64,000 nucleotides of DNA. It comes from Candidatus Saccharimonadales bacterium. Its GTDB lineage: Bacteria > Patescibacteriota > Saccharimonadia > Saccharimonadales > JACQNP01. The stretch lies in assembly GCA_046350695.1 (NCBI GenBank), contig JAXLZX010000003.1, positions 2,236 to 66,235 on the forward strand, read 5' to 3'. A program made the position numbers and the translations under genes. This document shows positions 19,536 to 45,850 of the stretch, in pieces. The notes below the pieces were generated by a model, which worked only from the letters and a program-made list of their open reading frames with translations, was not told the origin of the DNA and did not search any database. Every line of letters begins with the position of its first letter. Within the stretch, counting starts at the first letter, position 1.

Positions 19536-20174
19536 ATGAAGCTGACTAAATTTGTACATTCATGTGTTCTAGTGGAGCATAGCGGGAAGGCAGTTTTGTT
19601 TGATCCTGGAATATTTAGTTGGGGCAGCGGTACTGTTGACGTATCTGTATTGCCGGGCCTGGATGCTGTTGTAGTTAGCCATAAACATGCCGATCACTTT
19701 CACAAGCCGTTTGTGAAAGAATTAATACGAAAATTCCCTGATGCTCAATGGGCCGCACCGTTAGATATGCATGCTGACCTGCAATCATGGGGGGCGAAAA
19801 AAATAACGAATCAGTCGGTCAATGACTTAGATATCAATGAGATAGAGCACGCAGTTGTCGAACCGTTTGGCATACAGGTACACAATCTAATTACACATTT
19901 TATGGATCTAGTAACGCATCCTGGCGATACGCATAATTTTACAGAAACCAAAGACATACTATTATTGCCAGTGCAGGCACCTTGGGGGACAACAATCAGA
20001 GCTATTGAATTAGTAAACCAACTGAAGCCGAAATATATTCTTCCTATACACGATTGGATGTGGAATAACGATTGGCGAGAGAACGCCTATAATAGGTTTG
20101 AAGATCTCTTTGCTAATTCTGTAACAACTTTCTTGAGGCCTGTTGACGGCCAGTCGATTGAGGTTAGTTTGTGA
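19536..20174 (+). CDS. MBL-fold metallo-hydrolase
   Basis: HxHxDH motif (SHKHADHF). 212 aa. Confidence 0.65.
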   Translation: MKLTKFVHSCVLVEHSGKAVLFDPGIFSWGSGTVDVSVLPGLDAVVVSHKHADHFHKPFVKELIRKFPDAQWAAPLDMHADLQSWGAKKITNQSVNDLDINEIEHAVVEPFGIQVHNLITHFMDLVTHPGDTHNFTETKDILLLPVQAPWGTTIRAIELVNQLKPKYILPIHDWMWNNDWRENAYNRFEDLFANSVTTFLRPVDGQSIEVSL

Positions 20175-20953
20175 AATTCTTATATATAGGTGATGTTATG
20201 GCGGGGCCAGGTATTCAATCTGTAAGCGAGAACTTACCTAGGGCAAAGAAAATTTATGAACCCGATTTTGTTATTGTGCAAGCCGAGAACGTAAGTGATG
20301 GCAAAGGTATGACAGTTGCCGACATGAAACATCTGCAAAAAGTAGGAGTCGACTTTTTTACAGGGGGTAATCATACTCCAGCAAAAATTGAAATCGAAAG
20401 CTTGCTAACAGATCCAAATTCTCCAGTCATAGGCCCTGCCAACATGCCTGATTGCCCAGGTCTTGGCTACAAGTACGTCGGTGCTAAGGGTAAGAAGATA
20501 ATGATAATAACTCTTATGGGTAGCAAGGTGGGCAGGGAGATCAATATAACAAACCCATTACAAAAGATTGATGAGATTCTAAGTTTGCGTGATGATGGCA
20601 CGGATTTTACTATTGTAAATTTTCATGGAGATTTCAGTAGTGAAAAACGTATTATCGGATATTATTTAGATGGTAAAGTAACAGCTGTAGTCGGTGATCA
20701 TTGGCATGTCCCGACGGCCGATGCAATGATCTTGCCGCAAGGCACAGCGCACGTCACGGATGTAGGTATGTGTGGTAGTCTTCATTCCAGTCTAGGTGTC
20801 ACCCTAGAATCGGTTGTTCCTAGATGGAAGGACGGTACAATAACTACAAATGAAATTGCTACCAAACGACCATTTCAGTTTAATGCAGTCTTGTTTGAGG
20901 CGAATAATAAAGGCCTGGCTAATTCTATCAAAAGAATCCAGAATATAAACTAA
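20171..20953 (+). CDS. ymdB: YmdB-like metallophosphoesterase (TIGR00282 family)
   Basis: Motifs GDVMAGPG, QAENVSDGKGMT, GGNHT, NFHGDFSSEK and GDHWHVPTAD. Linkage to rny resembles that in Firmicutes. Confidence 0.8.
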   Translation: MKFLYIGDVMAGPGIQSVSENLPRAKKIYEPDFVIVQAENVSDGKGMTVADMKHLQKVGVDFFTGGNHTPAKIEIESLLTDPNSPVIGPANMPDCPGLGYKYVGAKGKKIMIITLMGSKVGREINITNPLQKIDEILSLRDDGTDFTIVNFHGDFSSEKRIIGYYLDGKVTAVVGDHWHVPTADAMILPQGTAHVTDVGMCGSLHSSLGVTLESVVPRWKDGTITTNEIATKRPFQFNAVLFEANNKGLANSIKRIQNIN

Positions 20954-21015
20954 CTGGTAAAAATCGTATTAATTTTGTATAATCTACTCCTGATAACAAA
21001 TTGTCAGCAAATTTG

Positions 21016-21131
21016 AAAACCAAGCAGAGCTGTTTACGAATTTGATAGGAGTTGGCTTTGTAAGTTTGCTTTTGATGATTGCAAATTTATTTTACAATCA
21101 TCTAGGTAAACTTACTATTACACAACGACGA
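21016..21131 (+). repeat. conserved leader, copy A (paralogue of 35595-35714), includes probable tRNA promoter
   Basis: Shared blocks with copy B: AGGAGTTGGCTTTGT (21047-21061), GCAAATTTATTTT, ACTATTACA and CGACGA. TTTACA-16-TACTAT is a candidate promoter. Confidence 0.6.
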
Positions 21132-21208
21132 CGGGGTGTGGCGCAGTTGGCTAGCGCGCGCGGTTTGGGACCGTGAGGTCGAAGGTTCGAGTCCTTTCAC
21201 CCCGACCA
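21132..21208 (+). tRNA. tRNA-Pro (anticodon TGG), CCA encoded
   Basis: Manual cloverleaf: acceptor CGGGGTG/CACCCCG, D stem GCGC/GCGC, anticodon stem CGCGG/CCGTG, loop TTTGGGA, T arm GAAGG-TTCGAGT-CCTTT. Confidence 0.9.
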
Positions 21209-22770
21209 TTCAAGACAGCTTGAGCCTTTTCCAGTTTGGAGAAGGCTTTTGTCATCTGATAGGACACTACTTTTTGTTCGTCTACGACTAGGTTCAAAAA
21301 GATTATTCGACATATACGGTCTTTTGCGACTTCATTGGCTGCCTTCACCTTAGAACCAGCGTTTTTAGCTAGGTTCAAAAATTGTTCAATGCTTAGCAGC
21401 TCTTCCTCTGGATCGTTTAAGGTGTCTCTTGAATCTTTAATTTGTTGCTCTAGGTCTTTGCGTTCTGCTTCCAATTTTTCAAGCTGCTCATTATTCACTT
21501 TCCAGACAGGGCTGTCCTGTTTGTAGTCAATGAGCCTTAACCCAATGTTTTTAATCCTTCGTTTGGTTGCTTTTAATGCACCCTCTTTGCTGTTTATTTC
21601 AGTTCTAAGTTCGAGCCGTCTTTTATCTGCTTGAATCGTTAGGTTGTCATGATAATACTGATAATCCTTTTCTGTAAGTTCTATCCCTTTTTCCAAGAGC
21701 TTGTAAATGAAATTAAATATCACAATCGCTCGTATAGACTTCTTCTTGCGAGGACAACTTTCACTATTACATCGGTAGTACAAATAGCGTTTACCAGCTC
21801 TAGCTTTCGAAGCAGCAGGACCCATACCTAGACCACAAAATGAGCATTTAATGAGCCCACGAAGCGGGTAGTACGTTTTTCGCCTATTAGTAACAAGTGG
21901 TGATTTGGTGGCTCTGTTGATACGTTGAACTTCATTGAAGTCTTCTTCACTTACTGCTGGCTTAAAATCGTATGCGTCCAACAGCGAAACATTTTTCTTA
22001 GTTTGAATTAGAACGCCGTAATAAAATGGGTCTCGGAAAACATCACTCAAAATCTGAAAGGTCATAGTGATTTTTTCGCCATACTTCTTTGACTTCGTAC
22101 TTTTAATTACACGACCATAACCTTGCTCATTCATGTACTCTGCAATTTCCCGTAAGCCAGTCCCGTTCTTTCGTAGCTGCCATGCTTCTACAATGAGGTC
22201 GTAGTTTTTACCGTCAGGAACATATATGCCCTCATCAGTACGGACATATCCATGCTTGGGCGTTCCTGATGATTTACCCTCTTTCAATGCTCGTTTATGA
22301 CCACGTTTTACGTTTTGAGATAAATTAGCGGAATAGTAAGTAGACAGTGTAAATGAAATTCCAAGTAGCATTTTGCCACTGGCATCGTTGGTAAAGTAAT
22401 GAGTACAGAACTTGAGGTCTTGAATGTATTTATCATCAATCAAGCCAAAAATTTTGCCACCGTCTTGCATGTTTCGTGCCAATCGGTCAGGGTGCCAAGC
22501 TATGATGCCATTCACCTTTCCTGCTTGTAGGTCGTTGAGCATATCTTTGAAACGATCCCGCTTAGGATTGTCAGGTATTTTTGCCGAAGCCTTATCTTCG
22601 TAGTAGGGCTTAGCTAGTCTAATCCCAAGTTTTGCAGCTAGTTCCTCACACTCGGCAATTTGGTCCTCAACAGAACGTTGTTGGCGTTCTTTATCGTCTG
22701 TAGATTTACGAACATAAAGAGCATATTTCAGTTTTGTTATGTCTACCTGTTCTTCTTGCTCGTTCTCCAT
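21151..22770 (-). CDS. large serine recombinase (resolvase/invertase N-domain + recombinase domain + zinc ribbon + coiled coil)
   Basis: N-terminus YALYVRKSTDDKERQQRSVEDQ carries the catalytic Ser context. DRLARN is present, and the zinc ribbon is CSFCG...YYRCNSESC. The last ~19 codons are antisense to tRNA-Pro, so the true C-terminus is uncertain. Confidence 0.9.
   Translation of the reverse strand: MENEQEEQVDITKLKYALYVRKSTDDKERQQRSVEDQIAECEELAAKLGIRLAKPYYEDKASAKIPDNPKRDRFKDMLNDLQAGKVNGIIAWHPDRLARNMQDGGKIFGLIDDKYIQDLKFCTHYFTNDASGKMLLGISFTLSTYYSANLSQNVKRGHKRALKEGKSSGTPKHGYVRTDEGIYVPDGKNYDLIVEAWQLRKNGTGLREIAEYMNEQGYGRVIKSTKSKKYGEKITMTFQILSDVFRDPFYYGVLIQTKKNVSLLDAYDFKPAVSEEDFNEVQRINRATKSPLVTNRRKTYYPLRGLIKCSFCGLGMGPAASKARAGKRYLYYRCNSESCPRKKKSIRAIVIFNFIYKLLEKGIELTEKDYQYYHDNLTIQADKRRLELRTEINSKEGALKATKRRIKNIGLRLIDYKQDSPVWKVNNEQLEKLEAERKDLEQQIKDSRDTLNDPEEELLSIEQFLNLAKNAGSKVKAANEVAKDRICRIIFLNLVVDEQKVVSYQMTKAFSKLEKAQAVLNGRGERTRTFDLTVPNRAR
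21223..21250 (+). terminator. intrinsic terminator after tRNA-Pro (embedded antisense in the recombinase ORF)
   Basis: AGCCTTTTCC-AGTTT-GGAGAAGGCT followed by TTTT (9 of 10 bp paired). Confidence 0.5.
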
Positions 22771-23001
22771 ATTCTAATTGTACCGTAAAGAGTTTTGACG
22801 GGCTGAAGTTATCGTCATTACAACATTACCTCAGAAAAAAATTTGGGAGCGGTTGCTAAGCATTTACAGATACAAAAAGATGAACGAGAATACCCTCTGG
22901 AACGCACGTAGAGCGTCTATGACGAGCTTTAACGCAGGAGTTAAAGAAACCCCCACCTGTCATAATTAGAGTAGGGGTTATTCAAATAAATAAGGAGATT
23001 T

Positions 23002-23232
23002 ATGACTGCGAAAAAAGCCATAGGCAGACCACTAAAAATGGACTCTAGAGTTATAACTAAGCTGATAGCAGCGATACAAACCAACTCTAATATTACAGAC
23101 GCTTGTAGATATGCGGGTATTAGTAGGGACACGTTCTATCGACACATGAGTAACAAAGTATTCGCCGAAAAAATGGCAACAGCTAAAGCGAATCAGAACA
23201 AGTTGATGATGAGTTTTCTGACAGTCTGGTGA
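23002..23232 (+). CDS. small helix-turn-helix protein (candidate recombination directionality factor or regulator)
   Basis: 76 aa, divergent from the recombinase. NITDACRYAGISRDTFYRHM is an HTH. A paralogue lies at 37303-37535. Confidence 0.6.
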   Translation: MTAKKAIGRPLKMDSRVITKLIAAIQTNSNITDACRYAGISRDTFYRHMSNKVFAEKMATAKANQNKLMMSFLTVW

Positions 23233-23357
23233 CCTAACTAGTTCCGTTTGCTGTATTTTTAAGAGTTTTACTGTAAGAAAATTTGTGCCGATCCATAATC
23301 CTCATGCTTGCAGTTTTGTAAATGACGGTGATAATAAGTAGTAGATTGGAGAAATAT

Positions 23358-23921
23358 ATGGCATCAGGTGAACAATTATCAGTTAGTACAGAACAATTCG
23401 AAGCACAGACCTTAGCATTAGTGGCAGAGCAAGCTCAAGTAACACGTGACTATGTGGCAGGTCAGGTTGATGACTGGCAACAGCTACCACTGCTCGCACT
23501 AAGGGCTAATGGGAAAAATGGTTGGAGTTCCCAACTTTCTATGACATCTGAGTATGGAGTTGTTAGAGTTGGGAGTGGTAAGCATTTTGCTGACAATCCT
23601 GAACAGCGTCCTGTAGGTTTATATGGAGTTTATGTAGATTGTTCTTCTGGTAACTTATTGCGTTTATTCGGTGACAGAGTTGCAATTTCATCACCAGAGG
23701 CACTTGCAGATGACAATGAAGTGTTCCACCTATGGGCTACGCAAGCTGCACTCGGCAAGCTCAGTGTATTGTCGGCAAAGACACATATTGAATCTTTGGA
23801 CAGACAGATTAGAGAGCCATTAGGAAGCTGGCGAACACTGGAAGAGGAAGATACAAGACTTGCAGGTATCACGGAAGAAATCTCAAGACGAGGGCTGACA
23901 AGCCGTTTCGTTCGTGGCTAG
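23358..23921 (+). CDS. hypothetical protein (island cargo, no family recognised)
   Basis: 187 aa counted from MASGEQ. GGAG lies 8 nt upstream. Composition looks coding. Confidence 0.5.
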   Translation: MASGEQLSVSTEQFEAQTLALVAEQAQVTRDYVAGQVDDWQQLPLLALRANGKNGWSSQLSMTSEYGVVRVGSGKHFADNPEQRPVGLYGVYVDCSSGNLLRLFGDRVAISSPEALADDNEVFHLWATQAALGKLSVLSAKTHIESLDRQIREPLGSWRTLEEEDTRLAGITEEISRRGLTSRFVRG

Positions 23922-23978
23922 AGTGTTCCTTACAGCCGTTATTAAGATAAAAATCCAATTATTTTATAATATGTAAAA

Positions 23979-24004
23979 TAACAGGGGTGGGCGAAAATAA
24001 CATA
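23979..24004 (+). repeat. 26-nt perfect direct repeat, copy 1 (TAACAGGGGTGGGCGAAAATAACATA), preceded by TATAAT
   Basis: Identical to 27070-27095. In both copies TATAATA lies 8-9 nt upstream. Confidence 0.8.
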
Positions 24005-24134
24005 AGCACTTGACAAGCGTCTTTGTCGCTAAAAAATACACTCTACCCCTGTTAGGGTACGACCGACAACGTATATTGTGCGACATATACTGCTTATGCT
24101 CGCAACCTACTCCTCTTAGCTATAAAATAGGGTT

Positions 24135-24740
24135 ATGAATCCCCGATGCAGCCAATGCTCACGACCAGCAGTAGCAAGTATGAGCAATCAGAACCTTTGT
24201 GTTGAACATGCAGCTATGATGGCAAACATGGTGCAGCGACAACAGGCACAGTCCGCTGCCATGATTAACTACCTAACCGAGCAGATTGAATGGACAATGG
24301 GTGTCCCGTCTTCTGGACCACGAATCGCAATACCACAACCACCCCCTACTGTCGTCCATCGTGGCAACGTAACAAACAACCAGTTTAGGATCGACAGAAG
24401 TGTTATAGGTGCTGTAAATACAGCAGAAGTAGCTAAGATTGAAGTCTCAATGAATAATATCCAAAATCAGGACTCAACAGCTTTTACTACTGCCATTAAA
24501 GAGCTTACAGAGGCGTTTGCTGCAAATGCAGAACTACAAGACAGCAAAAAAGAAGAACTGCTTGAGATTCTTTCATATCTATCGAGTCAGGCAACGTTAC
24601 CTGAACAGCAACAGCAAAAAACACTTATCAAGCGAATGATAAGTAGAGTCCCACAAATTATCACTACTGCTGCTGACCTCACTACGCTCTGGGTTGCTCA
24701 CCACCAAGCACTAAGCAGTTTCTTTAATCTGCCACACTAG
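24135..24740 (+). CDS. hypothetical protein with N-terminal Cys-rich (CxxC...CxxH) motif
   Basis: 201 aa. The start MNPRCSQCSRPAVASMSNQNLCVEH suggests a small zinc-binding element. The rest is helical and Gln-rich. Confidence 0.5.
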   Translation: MNPRCSQCSRPAVASMSNQNLCVEHAAMMANMVQRQQAQSAAMINYLTEQIEWTMGVPSSGPRIAIPQPPPTVVHRGNVTNNQFRIDRSVIGAVNTAEVAKIEVSMNNIQNQDSTAFTTAIKELTEAFAANAELQDSKKEELLEILSYLSSQATLPEQQQQKTLIKRMISRVPQIITTAADLTTLWVAHHQALSSFFNLPH

Positions 24741-24886
24741 AGCGTTATACGCCCACCGTTGTTATCTGATATTGTTGTTTCGTTAAGCTGAGCAAGAGTG
24801 CTCTTTTCATCAACCTCTTGAAGTAGCTTCATAAGCTCTGCTAAGGTTTGACCTTGCTCAACCAGAGTAGACTGGGCTTTACCCAT
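24737..24886 (-). CDS. possible 49-aa ORF (hypothetical)
   Basis: MGKAQSTLVEQGQTLAELMKLLQEVDEKSTLAQLNETTISDNNGGRITL. It is convergent with 24135-24740, and the two stop codons overlap at CTAG. Confidence 0.25.
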   Translation of the reverse strand: MGKAQSTLVEQGQTLAELMKLLQEVDEKSTLAQLNETTISDNNGGRITL

Positions 24887-25074
24887 ATACAACCCCAGCC
24901 GATGTTTTGGTTCGGCTCGTTAGTTTATATATGGGTGACCAAGACTAGTGTCTTACTGGTCGCTGCATCGCACCCTGATGCAATCGTTCTCATCTATAAT
25001 TATACTCTTTTTGCTTATGTTTTGCAAGAGCAAATACAATATAGCTGGTTCAAACGCAAGCTGGTTAATGATTA

Positions 25075-25332
25075 TTAGTAAGTATATATCTTGCCACTTA
25101 TCTGATTAGCAGACTCGCTGTCGTCAATCGTTGCCATTACTGGTGCAGTGTTTCGTTCATACTTCACGGTGTCCCAAGTTTCGTTTAAGGTGTTAAGTAT
25201 ACCCGCAAAAATTGGTTCAACATTATTCGCCTTTGAGCGACCATGATCGAAATCATTGGATTTAAGGAAACCTGCATAGGGTTCTTTTAATTTGAAGTCA
25301 GTTACTTCAATTTGGTAATAGTATTTTTGGGT
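25075..25332 (-). pseudogene. start-less 85-codon open frame (gene remnant)
   Basis: The frame ...YYQIEVTDFKLKEPYAGFLKSNDFDHGRSKANNVEPIFAGILNTLNETWDTVKYERNTAPVMATIDDSE... is bounded upstream by TAG. There is no ATG, GTG or TTG in the first two thirds. Confidence 0.3.
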
Positions 25333-25396
25333 CTAATTGAGCATTTGTGCTATCCCTGTGGATTTTGCTATTTATCCCTGTTATTATTTAGTATAC

Positions 25397-26338
25397 ATGA
25401 AAGCATTTATTTTTGACCCTCTTTGGGACGACCTAGTAACACCCGACCTACTGGAAGTACTCAAGCAAGCTAATGTAGATATTGTGGTTACTAAAGTCAT
25501 TGCTCCGTTAAGTGATTGCAAAGAGTTGTTTGAGGGTGATGAGGACAGGTTTTTATGTGTGAACCCTGACTATGTTGGCTGGAAGCTGAAAAGCGAAGAC
25601 TATGAAAAGATTCCTAACTTAAAGGGTATATTCACTGAATCCACTGGTTATGAGTGGGTTGAACCAAAAGCAGCTAATAGACTTGGTATACCGATTTGTA
25701 ACATAGTGGCTTTCAATACTCAGGCAGTTGCTGAATGGGCAGTTATGATGATGTTCAACTTAGCACGTCAGACGCCACGCTTAATCAAAGATGGTTTCCC
25801 GTTAGATTTTGATAAGGACTTCTCTAAGTATCGAGGCATACAGCTTAAGGGCAAAACAGCAGGTATTATCGGACTAGGAAACATTGGTTCAGCCATTGCA
25901 GAACGCTGTGCGGGACTGGGCATGAATGTAGTGTATTGGTCACGCTCCTCAACCAACGACAAGTATAAGAAGCTGTCATTGGAAGAGTTGCTGTCTACAG
26001 CAGACGTTATACTTCCTGCCACTGCTAAGAATGACGAAACTGTAAAGCTTGTTAATGACGATATGATTCGCACCATAAAGAAAGACGCTATGGTAGTAGA
26101 TATTGTTCACGCTATGTTTAATCATCAGCTACTCGTTGATATGGTGGCTTCTGGTGATTTGTATGGCTATGGTTTTGAGGGCGAACCAAAAGACTTTGCT
26201 AAGTTTGAAGGCAATGTCTGGGCCGCCCCTGCTTACGCTTGGGCTACTTATGAGTCTATGTATAACAGCGTAGCTAAATTGGTTGATAATATCGTAAGTG
26301 CCAGTAAGGGCGAGTTTCCAACAAGGGTAAATAAGTGA
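25397..26338 (+). CDS. D-isomer-specific 2-hydroxyacid dehydrogenase family protein
   Basis: NAD-binding GKTAGIIGLGNIGSAIAERCAGLGMNV. The start is set at MKAFIFD, because the TTG start in the ORF track looks like a spurious extension. Confidence 0.8.
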   Translation: MKAFIFDPLWDDLVTPDLLEVLKQANVDIVVTKVIAPLSDCKELFEGDEDRFLCVNPDYVGWKLKSEDYEKIPNLKGIFTESTGYEWVEPKAANRLGIPICNIVAFNTQAVAEWAVMMMFNLARQTPRLIKDGFPLDFDKDFSKYRGIQLKGKTAGIIGLGNIGSAIAERCAGLGMNVVYWSRSSTNDKYKKLSLEELLSTADVILPATAKNDETVKLVNDDMIRTIKKDAMVVDIVHAMFNHQLLVDMVASGDLYGYGFEGEPKDFAKFEGNVWAAPAYAWATYESMYNSVAKLVDNIVSASKGEFPTRVNK

Positions 26339-26482: not shown

Positions 26483-27060
26483 ATGATTGATTGGCAAGTA
26501 TACACAGCGTTTGGCACACGGGTATCGCAAAAAGGAACAAATCACGACAGTGCATTCTCTAACGGTACGCCTCATGGTGCATCACATATATGGATTTGGA
26601 AAAGAGAAAATGACCAAATCTATCTTCTATTTCAAGTAAGCTCTAGGAATGTCTCCTATAAGGGGGGATGTTAGATATATCAGCAGCAGGACACGTTGAT
26701 TTAGGCGAGACTGAGTTAGAAGCAGCAAAACGAGAGACGGCAGAAGAATTGGGTGTCCAGTTGAAAGATGATGATTTATATTTTGCTGGTGTCGAACACT
26801 ATCAACGAAAGACTGAAGACAGTCATAAGGATGAGTTTAGATTTGTTTACACAGTTGAATATCACGATGGAATGGAGTTCGTATTCCCAGACGGTGAAGT
26901 GGATGGAGTTGAATGGATTGAAGCAAGCTCTCCAGTAGAAATACTCAGTCGGGGTGACTTTACTGAGCGATTTGTGCAACACACAGAACACTACTTCAAT
27001 ATAGTGTTTTCAGGTATTAGTGGGCAGTCTTTAGTTGGTACAAATCACGACATTGTATAA
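26483..27060 (+). pseudogene. Nudix hydrolase gene split by a -1 shift in a G6 run
   Basis: ORF 26483-26674 (...LFQVSSRNVSYKGG) and ORF 26668-27060 (MLDISAAGHVDLGETELEAAKRETAEELGV, the Nudix box) join into one protein if the run at 26662-26667 were G7. The join mirrors the paralogue 12029-12445 (...RRSKNVSVPGLWNHSAAGHVD). Confidence 0.6.
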
Positions 27061-27069
27061 TAGGTTTTT

Positions 27070-27095
27070 TAACAGGGGTGGGCGAAAATAACATA
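27070..27095 (+). repeat. 26-nt perfect direct repeat, copy 2
   Basis: Identical to 23979-24004. Confidence 0.8.
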
Positions 27096-35520: not shown

Positions 35521-35594
35521 CTAGTACGACTACTCCTTACGCTCGGTAAACTTTAATTATAATTAACTGGTTTATCTCGCACTATACAGTCTAT

Positions 35595-35714
35595 TAAACT
35601 AAGCGAAGCTGTTTGATAGATTTAGAGGAGTGGGCTTTGTTTGGTAAAAACCCTTGTTGGGCAAATTCATTTTGTCGACAATTGGTTTATCAAACTATTA
35701 CAAATCGACGATGC
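35595..35714 (+). repeat. conserved leader, copy B (paralogue of 21016-21131)
   Basis: Blocks AGGAGTGGGCTTTGT (35626-35640), GCAAATTCATTTT, ACTATTACA and CGACGA lie at almost the same spacing from the tRNA 5' end as in copy A. Confidence 0.6.
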
Positions 35715-35791
35715 GCCCCGGTAGCTCAGCTGGATAGAGCAAGTGGGTTCTAACCATTAGGTCGGGGGTTCGAATCCCTCCCGGGGTACCA
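35715..35791 (+). tRNA. tRNA-Arg (anticodon TCT), CCA encoded
   Basis: Acceptor GCCCCGG/CCGGGGT (G1 opposite T72), D arm GCTC-AGCTGGATA-GAGC, anticodon stem AGTGG/CCATT with loop GTTCTAA, T arm GGGGG-TTCGAAT-CCCTC. Confidence 0.85.
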
Positions 35792-37008
35792 TTCTAGACG
35801 GAGAGCCTCAAGAAGGCTCTTTTTCATCTGTTGAGATATTGTTCTAACCTCATTTAATTGTGCTACGAAGTGTTTTGTATTATCACGCAAGGGTAGCAAC
35901 CATTCGTAAGGTGTTATTTGGAGTTTGCCATCTATTAGCACTGGGTTCTGACCAAGTGCCAGCAAGATTTCCTTTTTATCAGCAATATCGCCGTTTATGA
36001 ACTTAGAGTTAGCGTTCATGAACTTACTTATCAGGTTAGTCATGTAGTCATACCAGCCTTCGGTATTCTAATTACTAGTAGCCTGTTGCTTGTGCAGCTC
36101 TTTTAATTTAGCCTTGAGTTTGGCGGATTTCTCAATAAATGTATCTTCGTCTACGAGCTTGCGAGTAGACATGTCTAACAGGGTATCAAGCTGGTCTTTT
36201 AAGCCCTTTATAGCCTGTTCCTGCATAGTTTCTACACTCTTGCGTTCTGGTATGTCAGCTTGAGCCATTTGGTTAATAGCGTCCATGCTCCAATCGTAAA
36301 GTTCTGGTATTAGCTCCCAGTTATTGAGTTCATCTACACATTCCTTGAATAGTTCATCTTCCGTTTTATAGCCATACTTCTTAATCTGACTGCATGGGCG
36401 TTCTCCAGTACAGTGATAGTAGGTATTTACATGCGTAACACCCTTAGAGTTAGTACGTTCCTTACTTTGAGCCGTAATCATACAGCCACATTCACCACAG
36501 CGTATAAAGCCACGTAGTACGAACTGTTTACGGGTAGCGAAACGCTTGCCACCATGACGACCTAGTAATAGTTGGATTTTGTCGTATTCTTCCATTGTCA
36601 TTAAGGCTGGAAAGTCTGCTGGATACATTTTGTCTTCATCATAGGGATCGGCACCCAACCAGCGTAGCGGACGTTACGGAACATATAGTAGAGCGATGAA
36701 CGGCCTATTGGCTTACCGCCAACCTTCTTGATTATATCTCTCGTAGAGGCTTTGAGCACATCAAAACGTTTCCATATTGGCTGTGGCTCTATTGCAGCCA
36801 ATTCAGGGTTTTTTTCGTACAGTTTCTGAAGCTCGTTAACCAATAGTATGTAGGCTCGGTTAATTTCTTGTATGTCTTCGTTTGGTGAAAGCCCAGCATT
36901 ATCAACCAAGTAGATATTCATAATCATACCCATGACAAGTAAATTCAGTTCACGAGCTACAGCGTAGTCGTTAACAGCCCCATCGTGTTTGGTTGCAGCA
37001 TCTCTCAT
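35750..37008 (-). pseudogene. large serine recombinase pseudogene (three frame fragments, catalytic N-domain missing)
   Basis: Fragments 36601-37008 (recombinase domain, ...SSLYYMFRNVRYAGWV), 36068-36658 (zinc ribbon FIRCGECGCMITAQ...YYHCTGERPC plus coiled coil) and 35750-36043 (C-terminal part) are collinear with the 21151-22770 protein. No resolvase-type Ser domain is present upstream. Confidence 0.75.
35802..35824 (+). terminator. intrinsic terminator after tRNA-Arg(TCT)
   Basis: AGAGCCT-CAAGA-AGGCTCT followed by TTTT. Confidence 0.6.
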
Positions 37009-45719: not shown

Positions 45720-45772
45720 ATCTGAGTCTATTGAAGTAGTAGAGTTAATAGGGTATAATGACCCCTGTTCTT

Positions 45773-45850
45773 GGCGGGCGTAGCTCAGTTGGTTAGAGCG
45801 TCTGATTGTGGTCCAGAAGGTCGTGGGTTCAATTCCCATCGTTCGCCCCA
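45773..45850 (+). tRNA. tRNA-His (anticodon GTG) with encoded G-1 and CCA
   Basis: G-1 (45773) lies opposite discriminator C73. Acceptor GCGGGCG/CGTTCGC, anticodon loop TTGTGGT, T arm GTGGG-TTCAATT-CCCAT. TATAAT lies about 15 nt upstream. Confidence 0.85.

Follow-up and report, generated by a model that had tools for sequence, protein, structure and literature searches.

An apparently undescribed structured leader motif and large serine recombinase islands on the two sides of tRNA genes in a Candidatus Saccharimonadales bacterium

The stretch analysed in this work (the window) covers 64,000 nt of contig JAXLZX010000003.1, positions 2,236 to 66,235, from a Candidatus Saccharimonadales bacterium (assembly GCA_046350695.1). 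Five tRNA genes were found in the window by ARAGORN, all on the plus strand, and two of them, tRNA-Pro(TGG) and tRNA-Arg(TCT), lie between flanks that resemble each other (Table 1). Upstream, each of the two is preceded by a structured motif, here called M. Downstream, each meets a large serine recombinase (LSR) gene that converges on it from the opposite strand, which is intact at tRNA-Pro (LSR1) and degraded at tRNA-Arg(TCT) (LSR2). An earlier reading of the letters without database searches (the sequence-only reading) had proposed that the two pairs of flanks are homologous, and formal alignment against shuffled controls placed this likeness well above chance. The upstream flanks (21016-21131 and 35595-35714) are identical in 81 of 124 columns (65%, z=8.3, global alignment with 300 shuffles), and local alignment gave z=7.6-8.8 against dinucleotide shuffles. 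The downstream flanks (21209-21258 and 35792-35830) are identical in 34 of 51 positions (67%, z=6.6). The shared blocks listed in that reading were all found in their places. The leaders of tRNA-Gly, tRNA-His, and tRNA-Arg(TCG), which it had described as lacking this sequence, scored at chance level in the identical test (z from -2.3 to 0.1). Moreover, a covariance model of the M 5' domain, run with the filters off over the whole window, recovered two copies only, the next match having 15 bits, and an Rfam scan of the window at the gathering score returned tRNAs only. What the alignment did not uphold was the proposed meaning of the likeness as one common frame. It is likely that the two look-alike flanks arose for two unrelated reasons, a leader element upstream and a recombinase island downstream.

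Table 1. Features at the tRNA-Pro(TGG) and tRNA-Arg(TCT) loci, in window coordinates.
Feature	Position (nt)	Strand	Basis or remark
Probable promoter, extended -10 TGTATAAT	20976..20983	+	~24 nt upstream of the leader hairpin; read from sequence
Motif M copy 1, tRNA-Pro leader	21007..21131	+	Covariance model 55.9 bits, E about 2e-9
tRNA-Pro(TGG)	21132..21208	+	ARAGORN; Rfam 63.6 bits; host gene, intact in filled and empty site
attL core CGACCAT (last 6 nt of tRNA-Pro + T)	21203..21209	.	7-bp direct repeat; sole overlap of the L166 halves
LSR1 island, 4,035 bp (one core copy counted)	21210..25244	.	Absent from L166
Element-borne hairpin AGCCTTTTCCA-gtt-TGGAGAAGGCT, then TTT	21223..21247	+	In LSR1 codons KAFSKLEKA; read from sequence
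Large serine recombinase LSR1, 539 aa	22770..21151	-	Intact; convergent to tRNA-Pro
attR core CGACCAT	25238..25244	.	7-bp direct repeat with 21203-21209; L166
Relic, 3' end of an older recombinase gene of a different subfamily	25245..25330	+	Directly after the original CCA end
TATAAT hexamer, possible promoter	35558..35563	+	~23 nt upstream of M copy 2; inferred from sequence; no call in two-hexamer scan
Motif M copy 2, tRNA-Arg(TCT) leader	35586..35714	+	Covariance model 53.3 bits; fold energy z=-2.8
tRNA-Arg(TCT)	35715..35791	+	ARAGORN; Rfam
Junction with recombinase island 2: TTCTAGAC, hairpin, T5 run, CATCTG (codons QM)	35792..35830	+	Alignment z=6.6
Degraded large serine recombinase LSR2, fragments 37008-36601, 36658-36068, 36043-35750	37008..35750	-	Without catalytic domain

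Motif M is ~100-125 nt long and is built of a hairpin H1 (apex AAAC-CA-AGC-nnn-GCU-GUUU with a covarying outer stem), a single-stranded AGAGGAG, and a long variable domain with a second covarying helix, P2, closed by GGAG...CGAC. The 3' end of the motif, GACG(A), lies 1-4 nt from position 1 of a sense tRNA. The minimal versions (L110, L122, L133; loci compared with the window are cited by L numbers) consist of H1, AGAGGAG, a short P2 hairpin, and GACGA. In copy 1, H1 occupies 21008-21044 with the apex AAAC-CA-AGC-AGA-GCU-GUUU, AGGAG lies at 21047-21051, and CGACGA (21126-21131) is flush with position 1 of tRNA-Pro. A long nested hairpin with the pairings GTAAGTTT/AAACTTAC and GATGATTG/CAATCATC follows AGGAG, and the fold energy is -33.5 kcal/mol (z=-5.0). 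In copy 2, H1 lies at 35587-35623, AGGAG at 35626-35630, and CGACGA at 35706-35711, followed by TGC. This copy is degenerate, its closing helix P2 being scored xxxx with no pairs formed, and it is unchanged in L170 and L171. Folding of both window leaders and of the L044 leader gave an identical architecture, and typical members of the family score 60-72 bits in the covariance model. The blocks GCAAATT(T/C)ATTTT and ACTATTACA are common to both window copies and absent from the other 48 family members. A small open reading frame (ORF) in the leader was also considered and rejected, as the two leaders place the shared blocks in different reading frames.

An exact-pattern scan of metagenome contigs, in which the apex letters were fixed by the pattern, returned 73 M loci. 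At 41 of these, a sense tRNA begins 46-137 nt downstream (mostly 93-115), and these tRNAs represent 13 amino-acid identities and 22 anticodons. At another 14, TGG and then a tRNA in reverse complement come immediately after the ...GACG end, so that M adjoins the CCA end of an antisense tRNA. Among the remaining loci, some lie at contig ends or have an insertion in the tRNA, a few are in contexts other than tRNA, and a handful match by chance. The sense junctions have 1-4 variable extra nucleotides, and the antisense junctions are exact. The sequence-only reading had itself named, as a finding that would count against it, that the leader is simply a lineage-specific companion of most tRNA genes. 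This holds in part, since M precedes tRNAs of at least 13 amino-acid identities in related organisms, but most tRNAs of the same genomes are without M.

The fold of M is supported by covariation. Over 50 distinct sequences, H1 positions pair at 98.3%, whereas column shuffles reach 79% and slid controls 35-46%, and nine covarying pairs with 141 doubly changed cells give a covariation score of 0.50 (0.13 for shuffles and at most 0.09 for slid controls). P2 has four covarying pairs after GGAG/CGAC, of the types GC/AU/CG/UA, and the box itself forms G-C, G.A, A.G, and G-C. G.U pairs prevail over A.C pairs by 20:3 in sense-type and by 9:2 in antisense-type copies (29:5 overall), which means that the same strand folds in both orientations. 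A -10-like hexamer at most 60 nt upstream of H1 was found in 33 of 37 sense-type copies vs 3 of 12 antisense-type copies. The spacing between hexamer and motif in the sense-type copies is 5-40 nt. A comparison of M copies with Rfam 15, whose families include Drum, GOLLD, ROOL, hammerhead, HDV-like, twister, pistol, hatchet, T-box, and 6S, gave no family match at E≤1 (54 kb) or at the gathering score (130 kb). Furthermore, the M pattern had 0 matches in the IMG/VR viral contigs, and no described tRNA-leader motif matching M was found in the literature searched. We regard M as a widespread structured RNA family that is apparently undescribed. On inspection, its core positions do not agree with a hammerhead, box C/D, or boxA, and these readings of the conserved purines were rejected. 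Lineage-specific tRNA promoter boxes were rejected as well, given that a -35/-10 pair is called in the Pro copy only and is not conserved in the family, and that the probable promoter lies upstream of M.

The neighbours of M are housekeeping genes (FtsH, TilS, HtpX, LemA, slipin, ComF-like), one neighbour being annotated as Candidatus Saccharibacteria, and M is kept beside TilS/FtsH with tRNA-Met in several species. Clustering of 623 ORFs around the M loci linked no partner protein to the motif. Several contigs hold two M copies, and in L092, L103, L130, and L147 there are copies that are truncated or stand as partial tandems. Copies within one genome share private features, as seen for the two window copies, L124, and L105/L161. 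M copies at different tRNAs of one genome are more alike than copies at the same tRNA across genomes, and it follows from this likeness that within a genome M either spreads or is homogenised, coming to lie flush with a tRNA end. M showed neither terminal inverted repeats nor target duplications, and no presence/absence polymorphism was found within two populations (around YmdB and HtpX), every member of which has M. The M copy of L001 is without the apex, and together with the degenerate Arg copy it shows that single M copies can decay while the tRNA stays intact. The sequence TGTATAAT is 100% conserved in L001 though the leader there has diverged, and it is the probable promoter of a transcript of the leader and tRNA-Pro.

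Some further observations concern individual M loci and tRNA leaders. At L095, L114, L125, and L160, the tRNAs start normally right after M and are interrupted in the D-arm region by insertions of tens of nucleotides. At these loci, which may have intron-containing tRNAs, the tRNA position given by ARAGORN is 200-280 nt downstream. Complete M-like copies that are not beside a tRNA (41-44 bits) occur in L090, L099 (585-700), and L137 (479-600), on GC-richer contigs that do not resemble those of Patescibacteria. The copy in L137 lies between inverted copies of an nqrF 3' fragment, and the copy in L099 is followed by genes that read from their translations as AbiEi/AbiEii-like; these three loci tentatively suggest a connection of M with sites of recombination or inversion outside Saccharibacteria. 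L112 (1-10320) contains an rRNA locus with ~3.7 kb between 16S and 23S. This gap is occupied by a fragment of a group II intron and, on the opposite strand, by the unit M-tRNA-Ala-tRNA-Ile. A promoter and start-region pattern, TGnTATAAT-N5-7-C(C)CTGTT, recurs upstream of tRNAs, at many M loci and at 45750-45773 of the window in the tRNA-His leader, where GGGTATAATGACCCCTGTTCTTG stands immediately before tRNA-His. The pattern is possibly an initial-transcribed motif specific to the lineage.

On the downstream side of tRNA-Pro, LSR1 has the Pfam domains Resolvase (PF00239, E=3e-25), Recombinase (PF07508), and Zn_ribbon_recom (PF13408), and its catalytic-serine motif YVRKS23T is invariant across 15 homologues. 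The ORF crosses the element-borne hairpin and then runs through 58 nt of the antisense of tRNA-Pro, with the resulting tail GRGERTRTFDLTVPNRAR. The C-terminal tails (GRGERTRTFDL...) of the homologues P0005, P0018, P0026, P0043, P0074, P0093, and P0095 are likewise translated antisense tRNA-Pro, and in an excised form the recombinase C-terminus would differ (...NGRSKANNVEP...). Besides the recombinase, two small ORFs (23322-23921 and 24135-24740) are contained in the island. Its empty site was found in L166, a contig from another sample of the same strain, which was retrieved as encoding exactly the YmdB protein of the window. L166 corresponds to window positions 20151-21209 joined to 25238-25890, both parts being 100% identical and overlapping by 7 nt. 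Because L166 joins the island flanks directly, the window carries a simple insertion of the island at the CCA end of tRNA-Pro. The sequence-only reading had held that the arrangement is not a standard picture of integration into a tRNA, and this is contradicted by the insertion at the CCA end that the empty site proves. The leader and tRNA-Pro are the same in L166 as in the window, so the leader is independent of the island.

L001 gives the same left boundary. From position 1 of the tRNA through LSR1 and beyond (21132-23389, 2,258 nt), it is 99.96% identical to the window, whereas left of the leader, in the core genes, it is 81% identical, and the leader region is heavily diverged and decayed. 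As the near-identity begins at the tRNA, the island has moved recently, with its left boundary at the tRNA. The cargo of the island differs among the relatives L084 and L088. The hairpin at 21223-21247 is kept in L083, L084, and L087, and it would serve tRNA-Pro as a terminator-like structure. Its place inside the C-terminal codons of the recombinase agrees with the earlier description of the downstream block as terminator plus recombinase coding region. The relic that follows the right core is ~75-80% identical to the tRNA-Pro/recombinase junction of L044 (Candidatus Saccharimonas), whose recombinase is only 34% identical to LSR1. It indicates that the same tRNA-Pro attB was used serially by different islands. 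Partial tRNA repeats as island ends were sought by short-word BLAST of both junctions against the window, and nothing above chance was found.

Three side observations were made at this site. Five independent assemblies of the strain (L163, L164, L165, L168, L169) break ~25-30 nt into tRNA-Pro, which would fit a coexistence of filled and empty sites in the populations sampled. The H1 apex of M differs by one nucleotide in L165, which has AAAGCC instead of AAAACC. In addition, a conserved intergenic element that reads TTGTATAAT ... TAACAGGGGTGGGCGAAAATAACA ... TTGACA-17-TAGACT-CTACCCCTGTTAG occurs at 23958-24086 and 27051-27094 of the window, and the L084 and L088 islands have it too. A promoter pair and a small RNA are both possible readings of it.

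At tRNA-Arg(TCT), LSR2 is recognised by a zinc-ribbon match (PF13408) and by 29% identity to LSR1 over 83 aa (hhalign probability 89%), and an identical broken copy is present in other samples. Its frame, like that of LSR1, crosses the 3' hairpin and enters the antisense of the tRNA. The hairpin of this junction is GAGCCT-caaga-AGGCTC at 35803-35819, and TTCTAGAC has its Pro-site counterpart in TTCAAGAC. Other members of the recombinase family have conserved C-terminal codons (...SYQ(M/L)K.PF...) at these positions, and the distance of the codons from the CCA end is constant in the family. The 97-aa C-terminal fragment of LSR2 had no significant match to LSR1 and the family by BLASTP and hhalign, being too diverged, and the downstream homology at the protein level therefore rests on the conserved position of these short motif codons. 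The downstream likeness has three parts, namely the P'-arm start TTC(A/T)AGAC, the hairpin that would replace the tRNA terminator, and the C-terminal codons. The Arg island is a decayed relic with a recombinase related to LSR1, and the Pro island is intact and was acquired recently.

The recombinase family is predicted to integrate at tRNA genes. LSR1 has more than 2,600 homologues. Among 80 loci in species-representative genomes, almost all of Patescibacteria, a convergent tRNA lies at the 3' end of the recombinase in 60, with 12 tRNA identities, and the protein match ends inside the tRNA in 35 of these 60. The close homologues of LSR1 are all at tRNA-Pro, and the 12 tRNA identities belong to the family as a whole. 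An integrase beside a full-length tRNA, with variable distal cargo, was found in the window, L083, L084, L087, and L088. Three features of a large serine integrase are present at the Pro site: the resolvase domain, the recombinase and zinc-ribbon domains, and a short core at attL and attR with an unoccupied attB. The LSR1 island is an ordinary tRNA integration, unusual only in its serine recombinase and 7-bp core. No specific description of tRNA-targeting serine recombinases in Patescibacteria was found in the literature searched.

The leader and the recombinase flanks are independent modules. In L083, L084, and L087, whose recombinases are 79-94% identical, the same recombinase/tRNA-Pro junction is found without M, and the leaders are short and ordinary, with a TGnTATAAT promoter and no similarity to the window leader. 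Conversely, a recombinase gene lies near M at one of the 73 M loci (L139). Outside the window, M was found at 2 of 60 recombinase-adjacent tRNAs (L044, L020) vs 0 of 70 other tRNAs (p=0.21). The order at L139 (4276-5969) is M, tRNA, and a convergent recombinase, and the same contig has an antisense-type M between two tRNAs (2642-2923).

We hypothesize that the leader M, a member of a repeat family, upstream and the LSR islands at the CCA end downstream came to these tRNAs independently, and we consider this the best and a rather probable explanation of the two loci. M, placed between the tRNA promoter and the tRNA, would be transcribed as the 5' leader of the pre-tRNA, and RNase P would free it as a discrete folded RNA. 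New M copies would arise by an event at the DNA level that sets the GACG end 1-4 nt from the acceptor-stem helix. Both tRNAs would have served as attB for related LSR islands, with the CCA end as the precise point of insertion and CGACCAT as the core at tRNA-Pro. A P' arm, a hairpin replacing the tRNA terminator, and recombinase 3' codons read antisense into the tRNA would come with each island. Several observations weigh against this explanation. There are five joint occurrences of M, tRNA, and recombinase, two of them in the window and the others in L044, L020, and L139, which is rather many for mere chance (Fisher p=0.04 when the window is included). A simple terminator scan made no call for the hairpins 3' of tRNA-Pro and tRNA-Arg(TCT). 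The invariance of the H1 apex is partly a matter of ascertainment, because its letters were set by the search pattern. The 14 antisense-flush copies are unexplained by a pure leader function, being mostly promoterless and yet keeping the G.U signature, and the population stability of M argues against high current mobility.

Whether M is primarily a selfish element that seeks tRNA ends or a leader that serves the tRNA is evenly balanced in our judgement. The same junction on opposite strands, the promoterless antisense copies, and the homogeneity within genomes favour the selfish element, and the deep conservation, the core-genome context, and the population stability favour a leader with a host function. 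It is possible, but in our view unlikely, that M is above all a selfish, non-autonomous mobile element aimed at the termini of tRNA genes. Its sense copies would then be made from tRNA promoters and trimmed by RNase P, and the RNA or a single DNA strand would be copied in at a tRNA-shaped hairpin. Either DNA strand could be hit, giving M-tRNA or tRNA-revcomp(M), and the antisense copies would be dead on arrival. The GACG end, flush with the tRNA end both ways, fits such an origin, for insertion beside a tRNA-shaped hairpin on either strand leads to both sense-5' and antisense-3' flush junctions, so that the two geometries would be one event on opposite strands. The variable nucleotides at sense junctions only, the sense-strand G.U bias that is kept where promoters are mostly missing, and the private features of copies in one genome point the same way, as do the patchy occurrence of M at orthologous tRNA-Pro loci, the decayed L001 copy, and the partial copies at four loci. 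On the other hand, M has no linked protein, be it a transposase, a reverse transcriptase, or another, neither inverted repeats nor target duplications were seen at its ends, and no copies were found in viral contigs. Moreover, M keeps TilS/FtsH with tRNA-Met as neighbours across several species, and presence/absence polymorphism was not found in two populations. Quite unlikely is the more specific idea that M is a new class of small structured RNA element, a bacterial non-autonomous element like a short interspersed element (SINE), homing to tRNA ends via the tRNA promoter, RNase P, and reverse transcription or single-stranded DNA, or, in a related version of the idea, a new ribozyme or processing RNA that acts on the acceptor helix beside it.

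The remaining alternatives are less probable still. M could be a catalytic or processing RNA, for example a leader that generates the tRNA 5' end by self-cleavage or one that serves as a handle for a processing or modification enzyme, which seems improbable. In this reading, the tandem G.A helix of GGAG/CGAC, stacked on the acceptor stem, would be the active or recognition site. The invariant GACG(A) end 1-4 nt from a 7-bp helix in both orientations, the conserved purines, the tandem G.A between covarying pairs, and the elements kept in the minimal versions (L110, L122, L133) would suit such a function, but no ribozyme of Rfam matches, the core misfits the hammerhead consensus by inspection, most tRNAs in the same genomes do without M, and the tRNAs behind the degenerate copies of L001 and the window Arg locus are intact. 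It is very improbable that the shared blocks are DNA signals, with a promoter in the 3' half of the motif (TTTACA-16-TACTAT in the Pro copy) and ACTATTACA as a -10 element, and very improbable too that H1 is a terminator or insulator for the upstream gene or a protein-binding palindrome. A promoter scan does call TTTACA/TACTAT at 21091-21118, with a start ~7 nt before tRNA-Pro, and both blocks are common to the window copies. However, the Arg copy has no such call, the blocks are confined to these two copies, and the extended -10 found upstream of M is a much better candidate that stays conserved where M does not. Covariation and the G.U bias speak for a single-strand fold instead, and H1 is AT-rich and without a T-run. 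Finally, the sequence-only reading had seen a frame of leader, terminator, and recombinase with exchanged tRNA cassettes. This model would make one recombination module of them and the tRNA, an attP-like frame or a cassette platform, with a leader that travels with the recombinase or serves it. It had in its favour that both recombinase-adjacent tRNAs of the window carry M and the other three do not, to which L044, L020, and L139 can be added. We consider it highly improbable, as L166 keeps M and the tRNA, the near-identity with L001 is bounded at the tRNA and not upstream of M, the recombinases of L083, L084, and L087 stand without M, 72 of 73 M loci have no recombinase nearby, and the association outside the window is at p=0.21.

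Under the preferred explanation, with M and the islands as independent arrivals, the leader side is the more interesting one. Pre-tRNA leaders are normally short and unconserved, and M, which is folded and conserved, therefore points to a processing step or to a parasitic element. A strongly covarying motif of ~100 nt outside Rfam, flush with many tRNA specificities in either orientation, would mean an unknown step of tRNA expression or processing in Saccharibacteria, or a new parasite of tRNA genes. The recombinase side is of an ordinary kind, but it gives a defined set of attB, attL, and attR for a large, previously uncharacterised family inserting at CCA ends. Such integrases are sought as tools for genome engineering and as markers of horizontal transfer in bacteria that are hard to culture.

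Among known elements, repetitive extragenic palindromic sequences (REPs), repeats like miniature inverted-repeat transposable elements (MITEs), and REPINs are multi-copy, intergenic, hairpin-forming, and homogeneous within a genome, and degenerate copies occur. M resembles them in being multi-copy, intergenic, hairpin-forming, and homogeneous within genomes, with some degenerate copies. The distribution of M is patchy between genera. It differs from them by its two-domain fold, its invariant unpaired purines, and its exact junction with the tRNA end, and neither inverted terminal repeats nor a partner transposase were found for it. Drum, GOLLD, and ROOL are structured RNAs that often lie beside tRNAs, and their co-transcription with tRNAs has been suggested (PMC5737381), while the HDV-like theta ribozymes lie 3' of phage tRNAs (PMC10879173). 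M shares with all of these a conserved fold and the proximity to tRNAs as its genomic hallmark. Unlike them, it is small (100-125 nt), stands flush 5' of a tRNA or antisense at its CCA end, and occurs in core-genome contexts and not in prophages, with no copy in viral contigs and no match in Rfam 15.

As regards the recombinase, the large serine integrases of the phage type (Bxb1, phiC31, A118) mostly target protein-coding genes. LSR1 has the same order of resolvase, recombinase, and zinc-ribbon domains, a short crossover core, and an attB and attP that are otherwise dissimilar. Its target is different, namely the 3' end of a tRNA gene, as at 60 of the 80 loci, and its activity is predicted. 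The closest parallel in genomic behaviour is given by the tycheposons of Prochlorococcus, which are integrative islands that target tRNAs (bioRxiv 10.1101/2020.12.28.424599). Of 937 tycheposons and cryptic elements, 910 have tyrosine recombinases (bioRxiv 10.1101/2020.12.28.424599), whereas a large serine recombinase is found here. Furthermore, the repeat of tycheposons is a partial tRNA of ~40 nt, and here it measures 7 bp and lies at the very CCA end. The ORF of the recombinase here extends into the antisense of the tRNA, and the hosts are Patescibacteria. In both systems, an integrase stands beside a full-length tRNA, related integrases are found at different tRNAs, the cargo is variable, and decayed integrase remnants accumulate at one tRNA. 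Moreover, tRNA-Pro(TGG) and tRNA-Arg(TCT) are among the targets of both the tycheposons and the family described here.

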